A stretch of DNA of 64,000 bases from Negaprion brevirostris (taxonomy: Eukaryota), in the NCBI GenBank assembly GCA_030324005.1, contig JARDVH010000150.1:15144057-15208056 (forward strand). The letters run 5' to 3'. The notes below the pieces were generated by a model. The model saw nothing but the letters and a program-made list of their open reading frames with translations. It was not told the DNA's origin and ran no database searches. The translations under genes were made by a program, and so were the position numbers. Shown piece by piece: positions 4,240-60,153 of this stretch; positions within the stretch are counted from its first letter, which is position 1, and each line of letters begins with the position of its first letter.

Positions 4240-4650
4240 ACCAAGAAGATGGTGGATGAAGTATAATGTGTGGGGGGAGTGTGAAATTATTCACTTTAGC
4301 TGTAAGCACCAAAAAGTAAAATATTTATTAAAAGGCTGAAACTTGTCACGTGGATGTAGAGAGAAACTTGGATGCAGTCGTACAAGAAACACAAATTTAG
4401 CAGGTATACAACTAGGAAGGTACCTGACGTGTTGGTCTCTGGTGCAAAGGGATTGGAGTATAATAAGGAAGCCTTACTGCAATTATTCAGGGCTTTGAGG
4501 TCACACCTGGAGTACTTTACACAGTTTCCACTCCCCATGCTCAAGCTGGTGCAGTGAAGATTCACTTGATCGGTTCCTGTGATGAGAGGGTTCTTCTATA
4601 ATGTGAGACTCGGTAAACTGGCCCAGTCCACTCTTGGAGTTTAGAAAATT
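4240..4650 (+). mobile_element. Old CR1 ORF2 fragment
   Basis: GLEYNKEALLQLFRALRSHLEY resembles the CR1 ORF2 C-terminus. Confidence 0.65.
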
Positions 4651-14882: not shown

Positions 14883-15135
14883 TGATGTTTATAGCTTTGC
14901 CCCTGCGCAAGTACCAGAGTCTGAGTTAATAGTTCAGTTCTTCCCAAATTTCTTGGTTCCGCATTTCTTGATCCTCTAGCCATTAGAGAAGTGATTTAAA
15001 GATCCACATCACACCAACATTAGCAACTTCAATCAACCTCAATGTGAGAAATCGAGGATGCGATGACAAGATATTAAACATTTGAAATGAGAGATCTAAA
15101 CTGTATGGCAGACCCCTCCCAAGGGAAAATCCAAC

Positions 15136-15283
15136 CTTAATATCCTCTAGGATGAATCTGCCTCCACACTTATTCTGGAATTCCACCACCTTCTCAGCAT
15201 GTTCCCATTCCTCATGTGACTGCTCCTTGAAGAACTCAGCAAAGTGACTCAGGGCAACATCATCCTGGTCCAAAGTAAGCATA
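15136..15283 (-). pseudogene. FTH1: Ferritin exon 2 (frameshifted)
   Basis: YAYF[+G][45 protein letters not shown]; 148 nt instead of 147. Confidence 0.9.
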
Positions 15284-15462
15284 CTGCAGGGAGAGACACA
15301 AAACGAAGTGTCAGGTTTGATCCAAGAAAAAACAGCAGCGTCACAAATAGATAACATCTTTTGATGTCATTGGTTGGCCTTTAATTAGGGACTCGAGTAT
15401 TTCCTGGGAAGTATGTTGATAGTCCATCCCTAGAAAACCCAAGAGCAGTAATGCTTTTTGGC

Positions 15463-31759: not shown

Positions 31760-33250
31760 TGATTCTATCAGTAGTTATCCTAACCTTAAGCTCTGTAATT
31801 TTTGATTGATCTCGCCATCTTTTTTGTTAACTGGGGATGCAGGTAGAATAATTTCAGATTCCAACTCCCTGACTATGAGCCAAGTACTTCTTGACATCAC
31901 TCCTGAATGCCCACCTCGAATGATAAGAACATGCCCCTCTGCTTTTCGACTCTTCAGAGAAAATAGTCTTCCTTCAGTGATTTAATCAAATCCTTGAATC
32001 ATCTAAAACACATTAAAATAGATTAGTCCTTAATTTTCTAGCATCAAGAAAACGCAAATACTACATATGATGAAAATCTGAAATAGCTCAGATAGCATCT
32101 GTGGAGAAAAAGAGATGCTGACATGAATAGTCTATGCAACATGCCTTCATAATTTTAGCCTTGAAATCTTTGACAAACCTGCACTGCACCCCCTCCAATG
32201 ACAAATGTATCCTTCCTGCCCTGCAACAGTACACCAGATGTGAATTAATGCTTTACATGACTTGCATAACTTCCACCTGAGACAAAGGCCAACATCCCAC
32301 TTGCCTTTTGTATCTATCCATTAGATTTCTATGATCTCTGCAAATAAATCCCCAAACCTCTTGCTTCTCCAGTTCCAAACTCTTAATTGTTTAGGTCTGC
32401 CTTACAGCTTCCACACAATTCTAGCAGCTGAATTTACACATTCACTGTAATATTCCTGTGCAACTTTGTTCCTTTATATACTACTTACTGTCACCAGCAA
32501 ACTTCAATATATTTGCTTTATGTACATCATAGGCAAAATATAATCTCTATTACGTTACAAACTCTTTACCAATTCTCTATAAACTTGCTTTAATTTTTGC
32601 TAATATTTTAGGAAATGTCATCTGAAAATCAATGACTAATATCCTTAGACAAACTCTAACCTAGCACCTTACTGAACTTCTGAAAAAAGAAAATCAAGTA
32701 GATTTTACATGATTTTCCCTTTACAGTCCATGCTAACTTTGTGATCAGTTCTTAATTTATCCAGTTTGTCCTTAGTAAGCAACTCATGTAACTTCCTACA
32801 ACAGATAAAAACTATAAAACGTCAGTTTTCTCATTTCTCTTTCACTCTTAAATAATGGAGTGAGATTTAACATTGTCTCTCTGGGTTAGAACAATTCTTG
32901 AATCAAGGGACTCTGAAAACCAGGACTAAAGCAACGACGATTTCCTTACCATTTCTTTTAATACACTGAGGGAGCAGAAACTATGAGGTACTGGAAAGCT
33001 GTCAATCCTCAGCCTCATCATTTTTGCTATTACCATTTTCTCCCCAACTCAAATAAATCTCTCATGATTTATTTTTAACAATTACAGGTACATTCATGTT
33101 TTCCTCGATTGTTAAGACAAACACAAAGTAATTATTCAGCAAGTTTACAATTTCTTCATTTTCAATTACGGTATTATGTCTCTCGTTAAAAGCCAAATCA
33201 CTGATCTCAATATCATTCAAGGGGAAGAAATTTTGTTTTACTATTCTTCT
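31760..33250 (-). mobile_element. Highly degraded CR1
   Basis: EIVNLLNNYFVFVLTIE and scattered CR1-like remnants. Confidence 0.5.
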
Positions 33251-35064
33251 AACAGTTCTTTCAAGTTTAGGCAATAGCTATCATCTCAGCTTTGACTGGT
33301 CCATCCTGAAATACCTCCAATCATCTGCTATCACGATTTTGCCATCTCCTCCACCACTTAGCCATGACCAAGATACATATTTTCCTCATTTGAGAAAATA
33401 ATTTCCCCTTCAATTTCTCTCCATGTCCAACAATTAAGTACTGACAATATCATAGGGTCCTATATTCCTTCACAGGACATACGAACAAACTTGATAATCG
33501 ATGTGATCCTTCTTTTAACTCCACCCACCTTTCATTACAAAGTCCAAGCCAATTCAAAATTTCAGTCTGTAGGGGACAGTACCTAATGCTGACTAACACA
33601 TTCTTATACTCTTGTACAAGATACAAGCAACTGACACTCTGCCTTAGTGTCACGATCTGTCTCACCTCGAACTTTGCACCTCTCTGCGGAACAGTTTATC
33701 ATATCTCTATTTTATTTTTGGAGTTAGCTTCAAGTTGACAGTCTCAGAATAACAGGTAGGCCTTCTAGGACTAAGGTGACGAGGATTTTTTTCACTGTGG
33801 TGAATCTTTGAAACTTTAGTGCATAGGGCTGCGGTGACTCAGTAATTTGAGCATTTTCAAGCTAGAGATATCAAGGTGTATGGGCATAATGCAAGAAAAT
33901 GGCATTGAGATAAAACATCAACCTTGACCTAGTTGAATGGTGGAGCAGGCTCGATCCTTGCTCTTATTTCCTATGTCTGTTGGAANNNNNNNNNNAAATA
34001 AATAGTAATTAATAGTTGAGCCTGGTTTATGTTATTTTTATTATGTTTGTTTACAATGTTTACAGAATCCTAGTATGATGCTAGCCTGCAAATCAAAAAT
34101 TCACTTCTTGAGTCCTTTGTCTGAATTGAAACAAAGTTTACATTTGAACAGAACATATAAATAAGTCAACAAGATGAAACCATAAGCCAACCCAAATTTG
34201 ACCTGAAGAGTTCCTGTGTTCCAACAGCACATTTAGTTATATTTGCAAGCATACGATTTAACTAAATGTTTCACTTTCATACCTTTTTTTCCATAAAAGG
34301 CATTGCAGTCAGGTTTGCTCAAGTTATCAGATATATGTTATATCTCGCCGAAATGAACAACAATGTGACTACATGAACTACAGCAAATCTGGATTTCAAA
34401 ATTAAATGGATTGTACAGCTTGGAAATAAATAGCCAGCACTGTCAATTATTATAACTAGACAATTTTGTTGAAAGCACTTTATTGAACCAAAGCTATCAG
34501 AACAAATGCTGAAAATGCTCAGGTTAAGCAGCATCTGTGGGGAGTTTACAAGTTCAAGGTTACGATCGTTCATCAGGGTCATCCCAGCATCTGGAGAGTA
34601 TTTTGCTTTTGGCTTATAAAAGGAAGGGCAGCTTTGTAATTCAACAATTTTCAGAAATTCCTTAGACCCAAAAGGGCCATAACTTCCAACCAGTGGCGTG
34701 AATTCATAAATGCACTTACCTGCTCGGGAAAACTTTTGTTCAAACTTCCGCTGGCTGAAGCTACACGGGACCCATAGCAAAGAGTGTCCCTGAAGGCCAC
34801 TGTGCAACAGTGGCATGCTCAGGTAAGCCACACCCTTTTTTTTACTGCACAAGCTACTGGACAGCAGGTAGATTTAAAGGGCCCAGTGGAAAATAAGTGG
34901 CCAGCCTTGAGAAACCCCAAGCGCATTTTTGGGGTTCCTCCCAAATCCAACACTGGGGAACTAGTACGTTATGAGCCTATATCTTGCAGTACTTAGCATT
35001 TTATACAAGCCTAAGTCAGCAACTACCAAACATCCGCTGCCACCCCTGCAAAACAAACACGTAA

Positions 35065-37000
35065 CAGAAGAGTTGACAACTCCGCCCCTCGAGTGGGTTC
35101 TTCCATTTATAATGATCACGGCTGATCTGATGGTAACCTCAAATCTGCACTCCATCTACTCCCAATAACCCTTCACCCCCTTGCTTACCAAGAATCTATC
35201 CACCCCCCTTTAAAAATATTCAAAGATGTTGCCTTCACAGCCTTTGCAGGAAGAGCGTTCCAAAGACTTATGACCTCAGTGAAAAAATATGAACTCATTT
35301 CTGTTTTAAACGGGTGGCCACTTATCTTTAAAGTGGCCTCTAGTTCCGGATTTTTCCGCAAGGCTAAACATCTTCTCCACATCCCCCTGTTAAGGCCCCT
35401 CAAAATCTTATTTGTTTCAATCAAGTCACCTCTTACACTTCAAAACTGTGGGGTGGATACAAGCCTGAATAGATTAGGTTAGATGGTCATTAGACTGGTT
35501 CCACTGGTCGGCGCAACATCGAAGGCCGAAGGGCCTGTACTGCGCTGTAATGTTCTATGTTCTAGCTGGTCTAACTTTTCCTGATAGAATAATCCATCCA
35601 TTCCAGGAATTAGTCTGTTAAACCACTTCTGAACTGCGTCCAATGCACTTAACTCTTTCTTTATAAACGTGACCAACAATGTAGTGCTCCAAATGTGTTG
35701 TCATGAGTTTCCTGTACAACTGAAGCATGGCATCCTTACTTTTGCATTAAATTCCCCTCGCAATAAAAGGTAACATATCCCAATTACTTGGCATACCTGC
35801 ACACTTGCATTTTGTGATTCAAGCACCTGAGCTCTGCAGTCTCTCGTTTAGATAAGTTTTTTTCATTCTTCTGACAGTTTTACATTTTCTCATATTGTAC
35901 TCCATTTGTCAGATCTTTACTTAACTATATCTTTGTGTAGCTTCGTTATGTCCTCCTCACAACTTACTTGCAACCTTTGAGTCATCACAAATTTGCCAGC
36001 CATACCTTGATTCATAATTTATACGAATGTAAACAGTTGAGGTCCCAACCTCAAAAACATTTATGCTTACCTTCTGCTTCCTATTAGCCAGCCAATCTTG
36101 TATCCAATATATTACCCTCATAACATGAGCTTTTACATTACGTGATAACATTTGATGTGGCACCTTTATCAAATGCCTCTGGAAATCTAACGGCAGTACA
36201 TCCACTGATTCGCCTTTATCCACTGCGCAGGTTACTTCCTTAAAAGCTCCAGTAAGTTGGTTAAATGGGATTTCCCTTTCACCAAACCATGCTGACTGCC
36301 TGATTATCTTGATCAGATCCAAGTGCCCTGCTATAACTTAATTAATATCAGCTTCTAAAATGTTTCCTATGTAGATGTTAGGCTAACTGATCTATACTGT
36401 CCTGTTTTCCGTTTCTCTCCCTCTCTGAACCATCTTGCAATCTAATGGGATCTTCGCTAAATCATGGGAATTTTGGAAAATTTGAAACCAATGCATCAAC
36501 TATCTCACTAGATCCTTCTTTTAAGACCCTAGAATGAAATCCATCAGGGCCAGGGCATCAGTCCCGAGCTCCAACAATTTATGCAGTATCACTTCTCTGG
36601 CAATTGTAATTTTTCTGTGTTACTTCCTCCCTTCCAGTTCCTGGTTTATAGCTGTTTCTGAGATGTAACATGTATCCTCCACAATGAAGACTGATGCAAA
36701 ATACCTGTTCAGTTTGTTTGCCAATCAGTTCTCCAGACTTACTTTCTATAGGACCAGCACTCAATTTGTTCAAGTCTTTTTAAAATATTTATTAGAAACT
36801 TTTTACCATGTTTTTATATTTCTGGCTAGCTTTCTCACACTCAGTCCTTATTAATCTTTTAGTCAGCCTTTGCTGTTCCTTCTATTATGTCCAATCTTCA
36901 GATCCGCAACCTACCTTTGCACAATTATATTCTTTTTATTTAAATCTGATACTATCTTTAACCTTTTAGTTAACCATGGGATGGTGGGTTCATCCCTTGA
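35065..37000 (-). mobile_element. CR1 ORF2 fragment
   Basis: VDVLPLDFQRHLIKVPH, WIQDWLANRKQKV, DAVQKWFNRLIPGMDG. Confidence 0.85.
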
Positions 37001-39799
37001 ATGTTTTCTTACTCTAGCCACCAGTGATTCAGTGAGTTTATGATACTAAACAATACAAATTGGAAAGCTCAGGTAAGTGCAAATGGATTGTCAGCACTTG
37101 CCTTAATATATCTAGATTACAATAAATAGCCACAATACAATTTTGGTTACAAACCAACGTTTCATGCTGGCACTGCGTGTCTATAAACGATAAATGAAGA
37201 AAAACATCAAGCTTAGCTACAATAATCTGCCTGCAAATCGTCAAGTGTCATTCACCAAAGAACACAATAAATGGGAGCAGCAGTAAGCATTGCAGTTCCT
37301 CGAGCCTGTTCCGCCATTGAGTAAGATCATGGCCAATTTGATTTGAGTCTCAATGCCACTTTCTTGCCTGTCCGGATGACCTTTGACTCGCCCGTTATTT
37401 AACATATCCCTAAAGTTACAACATAGTTAATTACAATAGGAAAACAGACTAATTCCTGTGTTCAAATATTGAATATCCGCACACATTACATGCCAGTTTC
37501 TGGTGTACTAAATAGAATACCTCTGGAACAGTTTTTCTCTGGTGTCACACAACTGCTNNNNNNNNNNTGAAAAATACTATGTAATTCATTTAAATAAGTG
37601 ATAACCTGTATTAATTTTAGCTTTAGGTTAATGGAAATATAGATAGGCAGTGTAGGAGCCAGAAATATTTACATGAAGTCTACCAATCTACGTGACTACA
37701 CATTCAGCAGTCTACTGCAAATGTAAAGTCAAACCTACCACACATGCTTCCTCTGCCTTCAGTGTCAATGGGTAATCAACATCATTATTCACTCATGCAG
37801 TCATCACTGCTTCATTCTGTAATATGAAGAGACTATGAGTTATGTTTGAACATTAAGTAATTTAGCAAAATGTAAACTTTCCAGGCTTAAGAATTTGATT
37901 ACACTAACATGATAAAGTTTTACGATATTCAGAAAAAGAGTCACTAACAAGGCAAATCCTAGTTAAGGGAACAAATTGTGCCACTAACAGTACAAGATCC
38001 AATTTCCTTTTTGCAAGGGGGTAATATTTTAGAATGCTCACTTTGTTATAGGTCAATGGAGTAGAATACAGCAAACAACTGAATGAATAGAAGATCAAGG
38101 GTTGAAACTTTATAGTAAGGTTTGGTGTGGTGTTCAATCTTAAGAGTTGGATTCTGCTAGAGAACTAACCCAATAAAATAAATGAAATTTCACAAGCATA
38201 TTATTTCAGAAGCTTTTTGAATGAACAGTCAACGCAAACTGCCTATGAGAGTAAAAGGAGTTACCTCAAATCTAGGACTATATCCACATATGCACTTAGC
38301 CATGTGCTGTTTTCATCTCAGGTTTCATTGAAGAAGGCACAGCACTTCGTTCTCCATGGCCATTTCTTTCCAAATGTTAGCAAAGATCCTTAGAAGTTGT
38401 GAAGCGTTATAAAAATCTTTAATGGACTTGAACACCTTTCTGAACAGACATTCGCACCAAATTTAGCTATGTCCAATTATTTTTATTTTTTTTAAATTAC
38501 AGTAAGACAGATTTTTGAACTGTTGGTAACCTTTATTCTGATGTTCCTGATAATTGAAATCTGGACAGCTGTTACAGACCATCCAATCGCTAGTACTAAA
38601 TTTACCACTCCACCTACACAGCAGCAAGTTTTTGGAACAGAATTTTTCTACTTTGCTATCAATTACTCCATGTGTTGTCAAAGTTATTATAAAGCTACCA
38701 GTTTTAGAAAAACAGGGAGAAAGGATTTATTTATGACAAAGTTTCAAACAGAAACAGTTAGCCTTTGGATACCTGGCACTAAAAACAATTATTTTCAGAC
38801 AAATCTGGCAGGACAGAAAATCTCCACTTCAAAACTTGCCGAAGTGATAACAATTTGCAATACAAATTTAAAAATATTTATATGCATGGAAAATGGCTGA
38901 TCTAAGGTAAAAGCCAAGGAGGACAGATTCAAAGTTCAACCTAAGGAGTAACTTCAGATAAACACCATAGCTGGCAATGACTTCAGACATGCCAGCTACA
39001 TGGGAAAACAAGTACAATACTATTACTAGAGTTCCTACAACTGTTGCAAAGGGACAGTTGAGACTTCAGTTTAATTAATATTTTTGACAGTACTTTTATA
39101 TAGTGTACTACAAAATCATGACAATAGAATGCATCTGGAAAAACTTTTGCCACAGGTTGCTTGATACTAAACTGGCAATTTGTTCACATCACTTAGCTGT
39201 CAAGGTAAGTGGGGCATCAACTGCAGTGGCTATACATCTACAATCGAATAGCAATACAAAATTTCATTAATGGGTAGAGTCAGTTCCTAACATCGCCCAA
39301 TTAGTTTTATTCAAATCATCTTCCTCCAACTAATTTTACCATTACAGAATTAATCCCTACCTGTATCCTTTCTACTATATCCCATCCCACAAGAATCCAA
39401 CTACAGGAAGATCAGGGTTATGAGTCAGGTATTTAGTTTAATGAGGCTTCGTGAAGCCTGTTTCAGTACAAAAAGGTCAACTCTAAACCACTTGAACATA
39501 CAACACAAAGAAAGCCATTTCCAAATATTTCTCATCCAATACATGTCAGCTTATAAAGATACATTGCTCAGGACTTCATTTGTAAATTTTGAAGAATTTG
39601 GAACATGATTAACTAGTTATTTACAGTGTACAGAGCTCTTGGAACCACTGAAAGATGCACAAATGTCCAATTACATGTTAAAAATGAAGCCTTTTATCTT
39701 CAGCAGTATCAAGGCGGTTTGTGAGGCAGAGAATATCTTCTGTTCCCGTGTTGCTTCCCTACCTTGCTACACTAAAGGAACGTTTCAGATGACAATTTT

Positions 39800-40317
39800 T
39801 ACAAGAATATGTGGCTATGAAAGCCTTTATTTTAAAATAAAGACCACAGCTTGTTCAGCTTCTATAAAACATCAGTTTGCTTAGCATAAAAATAGATTGA
39901 GAACACACTATTAACCCCTTTTACATGTTTGTTTTACTATAATTCCAGTCAATCCCACAACTTCAATTCAGAAATAGCTAGACTTTATGGGAAGCATTTG
40001 AGCAATGTTAAGACAAAAAAAGCATATCTAAAGTAAAAAGAAAACCTCAAAACATTAAAAAATATTAAGGGCTCTGTCAACTGCCTGAGAATGCTTATTA
40101 TTTGATTGTTTAATGTCAAAATTACTGAGCCAACACAGTGTGCATCCTCATGTCAGAAGCTGTCAGGCTGTGATTAACAAGGCCAAACTGAATTACGACA
40201 AGTCAGTGAGAATACAAGTACACAATACGATTCCACGAAGCTCCGAAAATCTTTATAAATACAGCCATAGGAAGGACGATCTTGAGTCAGGAAGATTTAT
40301 TTATTCGTTGTGTGTAG
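39800..40317 (-). other. CIRBP: CIRBP copy 1 terminal exon (ATHNE* remnant plus 3' UTR)
   Basis: TTCTCAG|CT ACA CAC AAC GAA TAA; UTR motif TCAAGATCGTCCTTCC; AATAAA at 39826-39831 (3' end uncertain). Confidence 0.8.
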
Positions 40318-41205
40318 CTGAGAACAAGAAGCAGGTACAATGTAAAAAGACTGCAACAGTAATCATAGCTTCCTCTTCCTATTGCTAGATCAGTGGTATG
40401 GACTGACTTGGATCATGGCTTAGAGCTATTGAGGCCTGATGCATCATGTAACATTGAAAATTATTGCTTTTGCATTTCCTTCAATGTAGATGCAATAAAT
40501 ATGCTATGGGAAGACAGCAGGGAACTGGGCTTGAGATTATTGTCATATATAAAATCCAGGTCTAAACTTTAAAGATACCCTCAACGTTTTAGAAATTTAG
40601 AATATACTGCTTTTTTTTGGTTTTGTTTCAAGATAGTAAATACATATAAATGGATTTAGTTGGGAGAGAACAAATCTGTTCAGCTCTCTAAATAGTGGGT
40701 GAAAAGTCTGGCATGCAGAATAAGAGCTAAAAACTATACTTGCCCAACAGTTCAATGCAAACGAATGCATGAAACTATGGTACTATACAATTAACTTCAA
40801 AGATTTGTATTCCATTTCTCAATATTGCACTATTCTAGTTAATTTATAGAACCTAGTGGCAGGCATCAAGCACTGTGGTGTTGCACAGACCAAGAACCTG
40901 TTCTTTCCGCCTGGACCCAACAGAACTGCAAGGCCAGAACCTACCATCAGTAGAACTTTCCGCCCCCAGAGATGCACTGTTGACTGGTAGCACAGGAAGA
41001 ATAAATATTATTGTACTGAGCTTTCAGTATTCAGGTTATGGTTACTCAAATCCACATGGACAATGTTGACATGCAGATACACTGCTTATGTTATGTAATT
41101 TTTCAGAAATCCATTACCAAGATAACTATATCTTTTCAGAAGATTAGAGTTGTGACCCCAGCCCAACCATTTTTCACTTAATTTCCATTTTTAACGGCAC
41201 CTACC

Positions 41206-44294
<3,089 letters not shown>

Positions 44295-44311: not shown

Positions 44312-44700
44312 GGGGGAGGAAGGAAGAGGAGAATTGAGTGTTTTTGCTAGGAATAGGGAGACAGAGAATTTAGCGTTTTTGTAGGGGGCTAGGGAAGGAC
44401 GAAGAATTTTTTTTGCGGGGGATAGGGAGGTTGGAAGGGCAGGATTGAGTGTTTTGCAGGGGAATAGGGAGGAAAAGAAGGAGAATTGAGTGTTTTTGCA
44501 AGGGGACGGGGGAAAGAGAATTTTTTTGCAGCAGGATAGGAAGGAAGCAAGCAAAAGGAAGACTGAGTATTTATTGCAGGGGGATGGGGGGGTGCTGGAA
44601 GTAAAGGAAAACTGAATATTTTGCAGGGCGAGAGAGAGCTTGGAAGGGAAGGAAGATTGAATATTTTGCAGGGGGATAGGGAGAGATGAGGGGGAGATTT
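44312..44700. repeat. Degenerate purine-rich minisatellite (about 9 units of 35-45 bp) in CIRBP intron 1
   Basis: Recurring GAATTGAGTGTTTTTGCAGGGG core. Confidence 0.75.
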
Positions 44701-51797: not shown

Positions 51798-54700
51798 CTT
51801 TTAATTAAGTAAAAACGCTAACCACATTCAATAGAACTACAACATTTAATTGATAGCTTTGAAATACATTCTATAAATTTACAGTACAAGTCCTCATTTA
51901 CAGTACATTTTAATTGCTTCCCAAAGTAAACTTTAACAGTGATGTAGAGTCAGGATTCGCATGGAATCAGCTAGATGGAATATTTTGAGAGAATTTGGTG
52001 CACAAGAGGAAGGGAAAGTTCACCATTTAAAAGTGAGCACACACTTAGCTCTTCAGACAAGATTAAAAAAGCTATGCCAGCTGTTCCATAAAGACCTGTG
52101 GGCACTTGTTGCACTCATTAATTATAATGCTTTCAAAAATGCCATCTCCACAATTTAATGAAATGGGAGGACAAAACTGTAAGCTGGACACAAACAACTT
52201 AATCCAACAAGTGTATTGGTCAGTTACCTGAAAACATTAACTGTAAGTATGCTAAAAATGGTTTTCCTTTTTTCTTCCTTTTCTTTCAAAACAGGAGAAT
52301 CAGCCTGAAATGAGTGAACAAAACATTAGTGAAGACTGATCAAATGTGCACCAGACCGCAATCCAATAATTTGTTGGCATACTTTCAAAACTTGGATACA
52401 GAGTAGCAATTAAACAAATTTTAAGGTATCAAATATTGAAGGTCTATATTTGCAACTAGTATTTACAAGAGTGAACTAAGATTGTGTTATTCAACAAACA
52501 ATAATTTGAAGAAACCATTCAAGGATCAACTCATTGACCCAATACTACTGGAATAAGTGAGCAGGATGTGAAGTGATACAAAACAGAAGACACATCCAAG
52601 CTCACCAGTCAGAATACATATTTAAAGTTAAAAGCAAGTATTCAAAATTTTAGATTGCGCTAAAGTGTCAAAACCAATTACTACTCAATAGTAACCAATG
52701 TTGCTTGATGAGAAAAATGTCAACTTTGTTCAAAGCTGGAAGTTTTTCACTTTTCCTTCCCCCAATCTTGTTTATTTATATCAGTTTAATTAACACACCA
52801 ACTTCAAGGTAGGGTTGGTCAAGGTCAATTAAAACCAAGCAAACATACAGGTGTTAATTATTTTCTGGTATNNNNNNNNNNNNNNNNNNNNNNNNNNNNN
52901 NNNNNNNNNNNNNNNNNNNNNNNNNNNNNNNNNNNNNNNNNNNNNNNNNNNNNNNNNNNNNNNNNNNNNNNCAAACTCAGGTCTTCACCCAATATCACAG
53001 TCACTTGATTGATGCAAAAGACAAAATTGAAAGGTAATAAAGCTTCACTGCAGTTATCCTAGTTTTAAAAGTAAAAATGCACATAAATGGACATCACAAA
53101 ATTGCAGTACCCTTTTCTCCAATTTATCAAAAGCAGATGCGTGCGAAGATTTATTTCACACTGGTGACAAACTTAATTTTTTCACCTAATGAAATTACTT
53201 ACACTGTGGTTCATGAGATTTCACCACCTCCTCTCCAAACTTAACCATAATCTTCTTTCTTCAGCTTTGCTCATTCTACAACAGAAAGTCAATAAGTTAA
53301 CTTCATCTTGTATGTAATTTCAAATCTTAATCCATTAACTAATTCTCTAAGCATAAAATTCTACTGCAGCACTAAAATTTAAGTGGGTCACCTGAAAGCT
53401 AATCCAAGACTTTCTATACTCCTTGCTTTCAAAATGTCCTAGTTTAGCAAATCTAAAAATTCAAGCACAGAATTTGCATAATGAGAAATTCAAGCATGTT
53501 TACTACAACTCAGTATAAACTGAGCATCAGATGGGTTTGCTTACTAATTTTAAAGTGTGCAGAACTCAAGTCTGCATTTCAGAAAAAAAACTGAGAAGTC
53601 CACCACCACAATTTACAGAATACATTTCCAAATTTTGCAGAGACTGCAAACATTCCAAACCCCAAGAGATCCTCCACTCCAACTTCTTGCAGAGGTAAGC
53701 TACCCAAAGGGAAGTGGCAAAATTGCAGAAAACAATACCATTCAATGATAAGCATGCTAAATACCAAAAAAAAAATCAAAATTTGGACCATTGCTTGTGG
53801 TATGCTGGGCCCCAGGCTGAAAGCTGGGGACCTTGTGGACCCCAGTTTAGAAATGTAGGCTGAGTATTGGGAATATCAAAAATAACTTGTGAACTAGGAT
53901 ATCAGTTTAAAAAAAGCTCAAAACCATAAACTCCACTCCCCCCTCCATTTAACAGAACAGTTGACCTTAGCATTCACGTTGCTGAGTTTGGCAAATTAAG
54001 GTCCAGAAGTGGACAGTTTGAGTCCTTCAATGGTCTTTTCACCCAATGGCAACAAGCAAACTCGATCTGGGCACATTTTACAAAACTGGAGAATTGTAGT
54101 TTGCTTGGATTGAGAGAGATGTACACATTAAAAAGAGGCCAAGGAGGAAAGCCACTCAAGTTTATTTCAAGTACATTACCAGCACATTTAAAATGGTTTA
54201 GTTTAACAAAATGGGAAAGTGGACATTGTACGAGAGCAAAATGAGTTACCTCAAGGCTATGATTATGTCCACTGATGCATTAGCCATAACCAGCTGAAGT
54301 TTCCTTGCAGGGGGAACACGTCATTCTTCAATGCCACTACCTTCAGCAAAGCTAGCAAAAATCTTGATATTGTAAAGTATATGACATCTTTTTGACAGGT
54401 AATATGGGCTGTTACCTTAATTCATGTAATGGTTGCACAAGTTTTGAATATTGAAAGGACAAAACAACTAAGCAGAAAATAATTTCAGATAGGATAGTCT
54501 GAGAAAAAGTTTTACTTAAATGCCTGGTAGAACAGGATTTTTAGGTAGGGTGACAAGGAGAATTTGCATTCCAGGTGAGATTTTTTTTTAAGGTATCACC
54601 CTTGGGGCTAGGGTTCTAACTTAGAATGAGGTCAATGATTTTATTTACAATTTGAATTCTAAGATGCTGGAATGTTATTTGGGTTCCTTTCAGGACTGAT

Positions 54701-56295: not shown

Positions 56296-60153
<3,858 letters not shown>

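Follow-up and report, generated by a model that had tools for sequence, protein, structure and literature searches.

A deeply conserved block in two tandem shark CIRBP-like genes is a candidate alternative exon homologous to a small exon of mammalian CIRBP

The AS-NMD switch of mammalian CIRBP consists of a choice between exon 7a and exons 7b/8, according to the accessible text of PMC7726792, PMC10711537 and preprint 10.1101/2023.01.18.524578, and the same choice appears in the available portions of PMC11346455, PMC11570493, PMC12795684, PMC7715621, PMC7538616, PMC7590145, PMC5066242 and PMC6721216. Its dependence on temperature, CLK and NMD was shown in mammalian cells, as the excerpts available from PMC7726792 and PMC10711537 report, and use of exon 7b yields a protein that is four residues shorter (available part of 10.1101/2023.01.18.524578). 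A preliminary description of the DNA analyzed here had invoked this mechanism, correctly so by the available passages of 10.1101/2023.01.18.524578, PMC11346455, and PMC7726792. In human cells, the accessible part of Table S3C of PMC10711537 lists PSI values of 0.93 for the junction of exon 6 to 7a, and of 0.0008 and 0.0039 for junctions of exon 6 to positions 1,273,494 and 1,273,601. The PSI of the junction of exon 6 to 7b (1,274,307) is 0.06 and reaches up to 0.41 on infection (PMC10711537, available part). The two minor acceptors belong to an intermediate exon at chr19:1,273,494/1,273,601-1,273,715, which is 115 nt long in the 1,273,601 form and whose junctions after infection each have a PSI of 0.0026, near the floor of the method (PMC10711537, same part). 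The openly accessible literature searched, in the portions available, held no account of the function of this intermediate exon, no account of a distal CIRBP module in cartilaginous fish, and no shark data on temperature- or CLK-dependent inclusion, and a full-text search for the human exon coordinates gave nothing related among the matches listed. A carp paper reports cold-induced splicing of cirbpb, with the type of event unspecified in the part available.

On its minus strand, the window, by which we mean the whole 64,000-nt stretch of shark DNA that was analyzed, contains a tandem pair of CIRBP-like genes, here called A and B. Gene A begins at ATG 44294, with exon 6 at 41260-41205 and exon 7a from 40317, where the ATHNE codons occupy 40301-40317. 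The first coding exon of gene B lies just past the end of the window, with exon 6 at 58496-58423 and exon 7a from 56309, where ATNE-stop occupies 56296-56309. The best matches to the exon 4 peptides were annotated shark and ray CIRBP-like proteins, and two Mustelus isoform tails match gene A exactly. In an unrooted tree of 24 proteins, A-type proteins cluster with one Callorhinchus gene (95/93) and B-type proteins with the other (100/98). Since each type pairs with a Callorhinchus gene, the tree places the duplication before the chimaera split. A caecilian has several CIRBP-like genes on one chromosome (three clusters), and some frogs show two-locus patterns; tandem CIRBP copies may thus be common in cold-blooded vertebrates.

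Other features of the window and of the genome were recorded beside these genes. Two introns of gene B carry copies of a 178-nt segment (57868-58045 and 58868-59043, 91% identity), and an imperfect tandem repeat at 44314-44683 directly precedes the first coding exon of gene A. An open frame at 14986-15366 (minus strand) has a first half that resembles a ferritin fragment. The same genome also carries a family of intronless CIRBP-like reading frames (L005-L014; for example, C25:6168538-6168975), some of them intact and some with stops; none of these 10 loci matches the 3' exons or UTRs of gene A or B.

Downstream of exon 6, the strongest non-coding match between the paralogs is a block at 38244-38420 in gene A and 54229-54391 in gene B, both on the minus strand. 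Full local alignment of 38420-38244 with 54391-54229 gave 125 identical bases among 160 aligned (score 75), compared to 30.3±3.1 and a maximum of 42 for 100 shuffles of a same-size region, and a self-BLAST of the window gave 81.7% identity over 60 nt between 38244-38303 and 54229-54287 (E 8.7e-8). These scores bear out the claim of the preliminary description that the block is common to both CIRBP paralogs, and its distances of 2036 and 2046 nt from the donors to the ATHNE and ATNE stop codons proved exact. By contrast, its statement that the introns share no other visible similarity does not hold, because the paralogs also share the 7a acceptor and the first ~55 nt beyond it (score 71); a weak 30-nt motif common to the paralogs scored 35, which is within the null. 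The block donors read TGAG/gtaactc at 38265/38264 in gene A, where TGAG/GTAACTCC spans 38257-38268 on the minus strand, and at 54250/54249 in gene B. The donor half is the best-kept part of the block between the paralogs, and the C at donor position +5 is non-consensus yet conserved. We denote as X the candidate alternative exon of about 100-125 nt within the block. Conservation extends about 25-30 nt ahead of the acceptor of X and about 15 nt past the donor, and the stretch ahead of the acceptor includes what we take to be a branch-point-like yUnAy motif.

The block is also present in a bird-like CIRBP locus (L002), which was the sole return of one pattern scan of metagenome contigs and whose intron 6 read-through peptide is identical to that of bird isoforms. 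The gene A block aligned to L002 3799-3639 with 129 of 151 bases identical and a score of 132, where 100 shuffles gave 26.4±2.4 and a maximum of 35. For the block of gene B, the score against L002 was 55 (null 26.3±2.4, maximum 33 of 100). The donor GAG/GTAACTC is identical in gene A, gene B, and L002. The retention of the block at L002 implies that the element predates the split between cartilaginous and bony vertebrates, and by these alignments it is older than the A/B duplication. The ~2.04-kb spacing of the block in the shark genes is not preserved in amniotes, where it is about 1.3 kb. The window is rich in dispersed repeats, so that a chance similarity or a dispersed repeat has to be considered; however, the alignment scores are far above those of shuffles, and the orthologous position in L002 refutes this explanation, whose probability we regard as practically nil. 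A repeat match, which the preliminary description had named as refuting its interpretation, did not appear: a pattern derived from all three copies matched the 2.69-Gb assembly twice, both times in the window, and the reversed control matched 0 times. A DNA search with the block recovered the query alone, in a search so insensitive that the paralog was missed too.

Strong conservation alone is no proof of splicing in sharks, and the block could instead act in the 3' UTR, as a structured RNA, or as a DNA enhancer and simply resemble an exon. Against this reading, none of the weak Rfam hits (4 and 4, with E up to 5) covers either block, the folding z-scores of the blocks (-0.91 and +1.95) show nothing unusual, and the boundaries of the block coincide with annotated mammalian splice sites. 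We therefore consider a non-exonic element highly improbable.

The identity of the block was indicated by annotated mammalian proteins. Of 308 proteins compared, 228 contain the exon 6 motif and 29 have unusual C-terminal tails of at least 8 residues. The block was matched in tblastn by 21 of these 29 tails, 19 of which come from ruminants, porcupine, and beaver, where annotated isoforms read from exon 6 into the homologue of the block; these isoforms are gene models held in databases for three mammalian lineages rather than independent experiments. Against a database of 3 sequences, the mammalian tails matched the L002 block with 79% identity and an E of about 1e-10, and they matched gene A at 38302-38264 with E values of 0.006-0.02. 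The ruminant segment consists of 39 codons split 2+111+2, or 115 nt, and stops at the shark donor, with SPR aligned to DLR at 38264. The ruminant tail then continues R-L-N, which fits the G/CTG AAG start of the next exon of L002. Moreover, a musk deer protein (P0067) carries an insertion exactly after SPR, which provides an independent mark of the junction. Exon X would be 102-124 nt long in the shark genes, compared to 117 nt in L002 and 115 nt in human and ruminants. The intermediate-exon donor precedes exon 7b by 592 nt in human and by 593 nt in L002, and the distance from 7a to 7b is 1880 nt in human and 1903 nt in L002. Taken together, the length and end of the ruminant tail and the human and L002 spacings imply that the block corresponds by homology to the intermediate exon and not to 7b. 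Thus, by sequence comparison, X is homologous to the small exon of annotated mammalian CIRBP isoforms, and we infer its match to the human exon from lengths, spacings, and the proteins of other mammals.

The preliminary description had instead called the block the homologous poison module and equated it with 7b. Its placement in a distal alternative 3' module stands, but the 7b identity does not, as the block matches the separate 115-nt exon. Orthology to 7b itself could be argued from the position of the block about 1.9-2.0 kb past the shark 7a acceptor, near the human value of 1880 nt, and from the presence of a donor. Yet the L002 block lies 1.2-1.3 kb past 7a, with its donor at 1310 nt, and a separate exon that encodes G-stop begins at 1903 nt. 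In addition, it is the AATGA exon described below, and not the block, that gives the protein four residues shorter. Mammalian 7b adds one residue plus a stop, whereas the gene B block adds either DFC-stop or a tail of 29 residues and its ruminant counterpart adds 39 codons. We consider orthology to 7b scarcely credible. Published human and mouse 7b primers (0 of 3) did not match the block, and they missed the presumed L002 7b too; the published 7a primer matches L002 and gene A.

Splice sites for X are predicted in both shark genes. In gene A, X would span 38265-38388 (minus strand), with 124 nt from AAG 38388 or 101 nt from AAG 38365, and in gene B it would span 54250-54362 (minus strand), with 113 nt from AAG/54362 or 102 nt from TAG/54351. 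The TTTGCTAG acceptor of the mammalian intermediate exon is present in gene B and L002 and reads TTTGCTAA in gene A, as seen in a single assembly, so that gene A has TAA where the TAG acceptor employed by mammals is retained in gene B and L002. Gene A is nonetheless the copy closest to amniotes, and its 85% identity is maintained without the TAG acceptor. In gene B, X entered from AAG/54362 gives DFC-stop, and X entered from TAG/54351 gives a 29-residue tail. The chimaera B-type isoform P0236 ends YDSY-DF, as a product of exon 6 joined to AAG/54362 would begin; this is the 1 protein, with two residues only, that fits X inclusion among the 27 chondrichthyan B-type proteins listed (which include 15 of 35 main-cluster members), and the 29-residue tail occurs in none of these 27 proteins. 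The reading frame of X is open in ruminants and closed by stops in shark, bird, and beaver, and this difference between lineages suggests that selection acts on the RNA. A stop more than 50-55 nt upstream of an exon junction elicits NMD. The predicted distance from stop to junction upon X inclusion is 125 nt in gene A and 102 nt in gene B with the AAG acceptor; for the TAG form of gene B, it is predicted to be 13 nt, or 84 nt or more via the next junction.

Beyond the block, each gene has a candidate exon that opens with AATGA. In gene A, AG/AATGAAG starts an exon at 37739-37816 (minus strand) of 78 nt to a predicted GTAGGT donor, and in gene B, AG/AATGAG starts an exon at 53203-53275 (minus strand) of 73 nt to a predicted GTAAGT donor, which encodes YDSY-E-stop. 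These exons lie 449 nt (A) and 975 nt (B) past the block donor. Annotated isoforms of shark, ray, and chimaera fit such a 7b-like exon, with one residue plus a stop. YDSYE ends 9 of the 27 chondrichthyan B-type proteins listed (again with 15 of 35 main-cluster members), and within 33000-41380 no AG other than 37816 yields the RMKQ tail of the Mustelus isoform P0136. A tail of a single residue (G, D, E, or S) before the stop ends 34 of the 228 proteins and occurs in bichir, frogs, caecilians, lizard, bird, and mammals. Seven AGs downstream of gene B exon 6 could give E-stop, among which 53275 has the best pyrimidine tract; AG 54325, inside the block, was rejected as the E-stop acceptor, since it follows purines and is not kept in gene A. 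The AATGA exons align neither with each other (scores 18-19, null 16-17) nor with 7b/8 of L002, which implies that X is far better conserved than 7b. An assignment of the AATGA exons as exon 8 was set aside in favor of 7b-like, given the E-stop isoforms; the 7b-like label rests on position and geometry, and DNA alignment cannot assign these exons to either 7b or 8 of L002. Exon 8 acceptors are predicted by a scan for pyrimidine tracts alone at 37180-37200 in gene A (minus strand, first base 37180) and at 52547 and 52304 as candidates in gene B (minus strand). The Chiloscyllium B-type isoform P0155 has a 15-residue tail that fits no acceptor downstream of gene B exon 6 in the window.

We propose that the block probably contains an alternative exon, X, located in both genes between 7a and the 7b-like exon, whose inclusion would likely trigger NMD. 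In this scheme, exon 6 would skip the productive 7a acceptor, and X and/or the 7b-like exon would be chosen. X would then be joined from its GAG/GTAACT donor to the 7b-like acceptor, with this junction predicted 102-125 nt past the stop. The unproductive route would thus run from exon 6 to X, as a cassette exon, to the 7b-like exon and predicted NMD. By analogy to 7b in mammals, heat and CLK/SR phosphorylation might set this choice in sharks, a suggestion that we hold with slightly more doubt than belief. An alternative interpretation is that the block acts mainly as a splicing control element or decoy, where binding of U1, SR, or hnRNP proteins tilts the balance between 7a and 7b and the block itself is rarely spliced in. 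The block is far better conserved than the 7b-like exons and yet is hardly included in human cells, and both the conserved non-consensus +5 C of the donor and the 85% identity of gene A without TAG would fit a decoy. Nevertheless, annotated gene models of three mammalian lineages splice the block in as an exon, and efficient decay would equally give a low steady-state PSI; we judge a decoy to be unlikely as the main role.

The two genes differ in where translation ends. Exon 6 of gene A (41205-41260, minus strand) ends GAT AGT TAA G/gt, with the TAA one base ahead of the donor, which corrects the earlier reading of the ATHNE TAA as the gene A stop and implies that the ATHNE codons lie in the UTR when exon 6 is included. 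An assembly error at this TAA was rejected, because orthologous proteins also end YDS: YRDSYDS ends 22 of 26 elasmobranch A-type proteins, and YDS ends 6 of 8 chimaera A-type proteins. At 40346-40143, a region that takes in the ATHNE codons together with the first part of the 7a UTR, 182 of 199 bases are shared with L002, and the retention of this stretch despite the exon 6 stop implies constraint as RNA. Farther into the 7a UTR, 39862-39741 shares 83 of 98 bases with L002 (score 58), with a donor-like CAAG/GTAGG in both that may be a further regulated splice site. In annotated isoforms of Mustelus and Scyliorhinus (P0130, P0134, P0136), gene A exon 6 is skipped (41389 to 40317/37816), and this skipping removes the stop and yields new short tails.

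Gene A also bears on a further alternative, in which transcripts continue past the 7a poly(A) signals and use the block as a donor only. The block would then be spliced to the 7b-like exon, which creates a 3' UTR intron about 2 kb past the stop and makes the transcript an NMD target with an unchanged protein product. The superior conservation of the donor half between the paralogs and the lack of TAG in gene A would agree with this arrangement; such transcripts would not be visible at the protein level, and several accessions per protein are frequent among the A-type. On the other side, the acceptor-side sequence is conserved too, the acceptor is used by mammalian isoforms, and gene A has ten AATAAA/ATTAAA hexamers in the interval from 7a to the block. 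Among them, ATTAAA at 39442 falls in a motif at 39437-39458 (minus strand), about 1 kb upstream of the block, that is shared with L002 (ATTAAA at 4254; 20 of 21 bases identical, score only 32) and is likely the main 7a poly(A) signal. Donor-only use appears quite improbable to us. Neither it nor a decoy role is mutually exclusive with the cassette exon X, which we retain as the preferred reading.

We conclude that the block is real and belongs, as a very old part, to a regulatory module already described, with its identity corrected; it extends that known mechanism and is no new type of system. By sequence and gene models, the distal module of X and the exon with one residue and a stop is placed in sharks, rays, and chimaera, and in both copies of a duplication that preceded the chimaera split. 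The switch has been studied so far in mammals, whose body temperature shifts by a few degrees, and the best-conserved piece of the module is an exon that is undiscussed in the accessible portions of the CIRBP literature cited here. X offers a precise target for minigene and antisense tests in mammalian cells and a route to asking how the setting of the switch has been adapted in cold-blooded animals. A bolder and doubtful idea is that X, and not 7b, might be the ancient core of the CIRBP cold switch across jawed vertebrates, with weak splice sites that read SR phosphorylation and decide between 7a and decay. If so, mammalian work would have missed this core because its own inclusion almost escapes notice, and antisense could be aimed at it to raise CIRBP without cooling, as at RBM3 exon 3a.

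Compared to the mammalian 7a versus 7b/8 switch, the shark genes have the same gene and region, with alternative acceptors past exon 6; both have a distal exon of one residue plus a stop and a further predicted donor, and their NMD geometry is predicted to be alike. Unlike in the mammalian switch, the conserved shark block is not 7b, and the exon 6 stop of gene A implies that a switch there would change only the UTR. The block resembles the minor human exon and the ruminant and rodent isoforms in length, position ahead of 7b, donor, and homology at the peptide level, and it differs in that the frame is open in ruminants and interrupted by stops in shark, bird, and beaver, and in that gene A lacks the TAG. 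Finally, X is similar to RBM3 exon 3a and the poison exons of SR genes in being small, highly conserved, frame-independent, and located in an RNA-binding-protein gene, as these exons are characterized in the available text of PMC11346455 and PMC7726792, and X, likened to them by description only, is likewise predicted to lower expression via NMD. In contrast to those exons, which by the same partial texts lie inside the coding region, X lies past the last coding exon.
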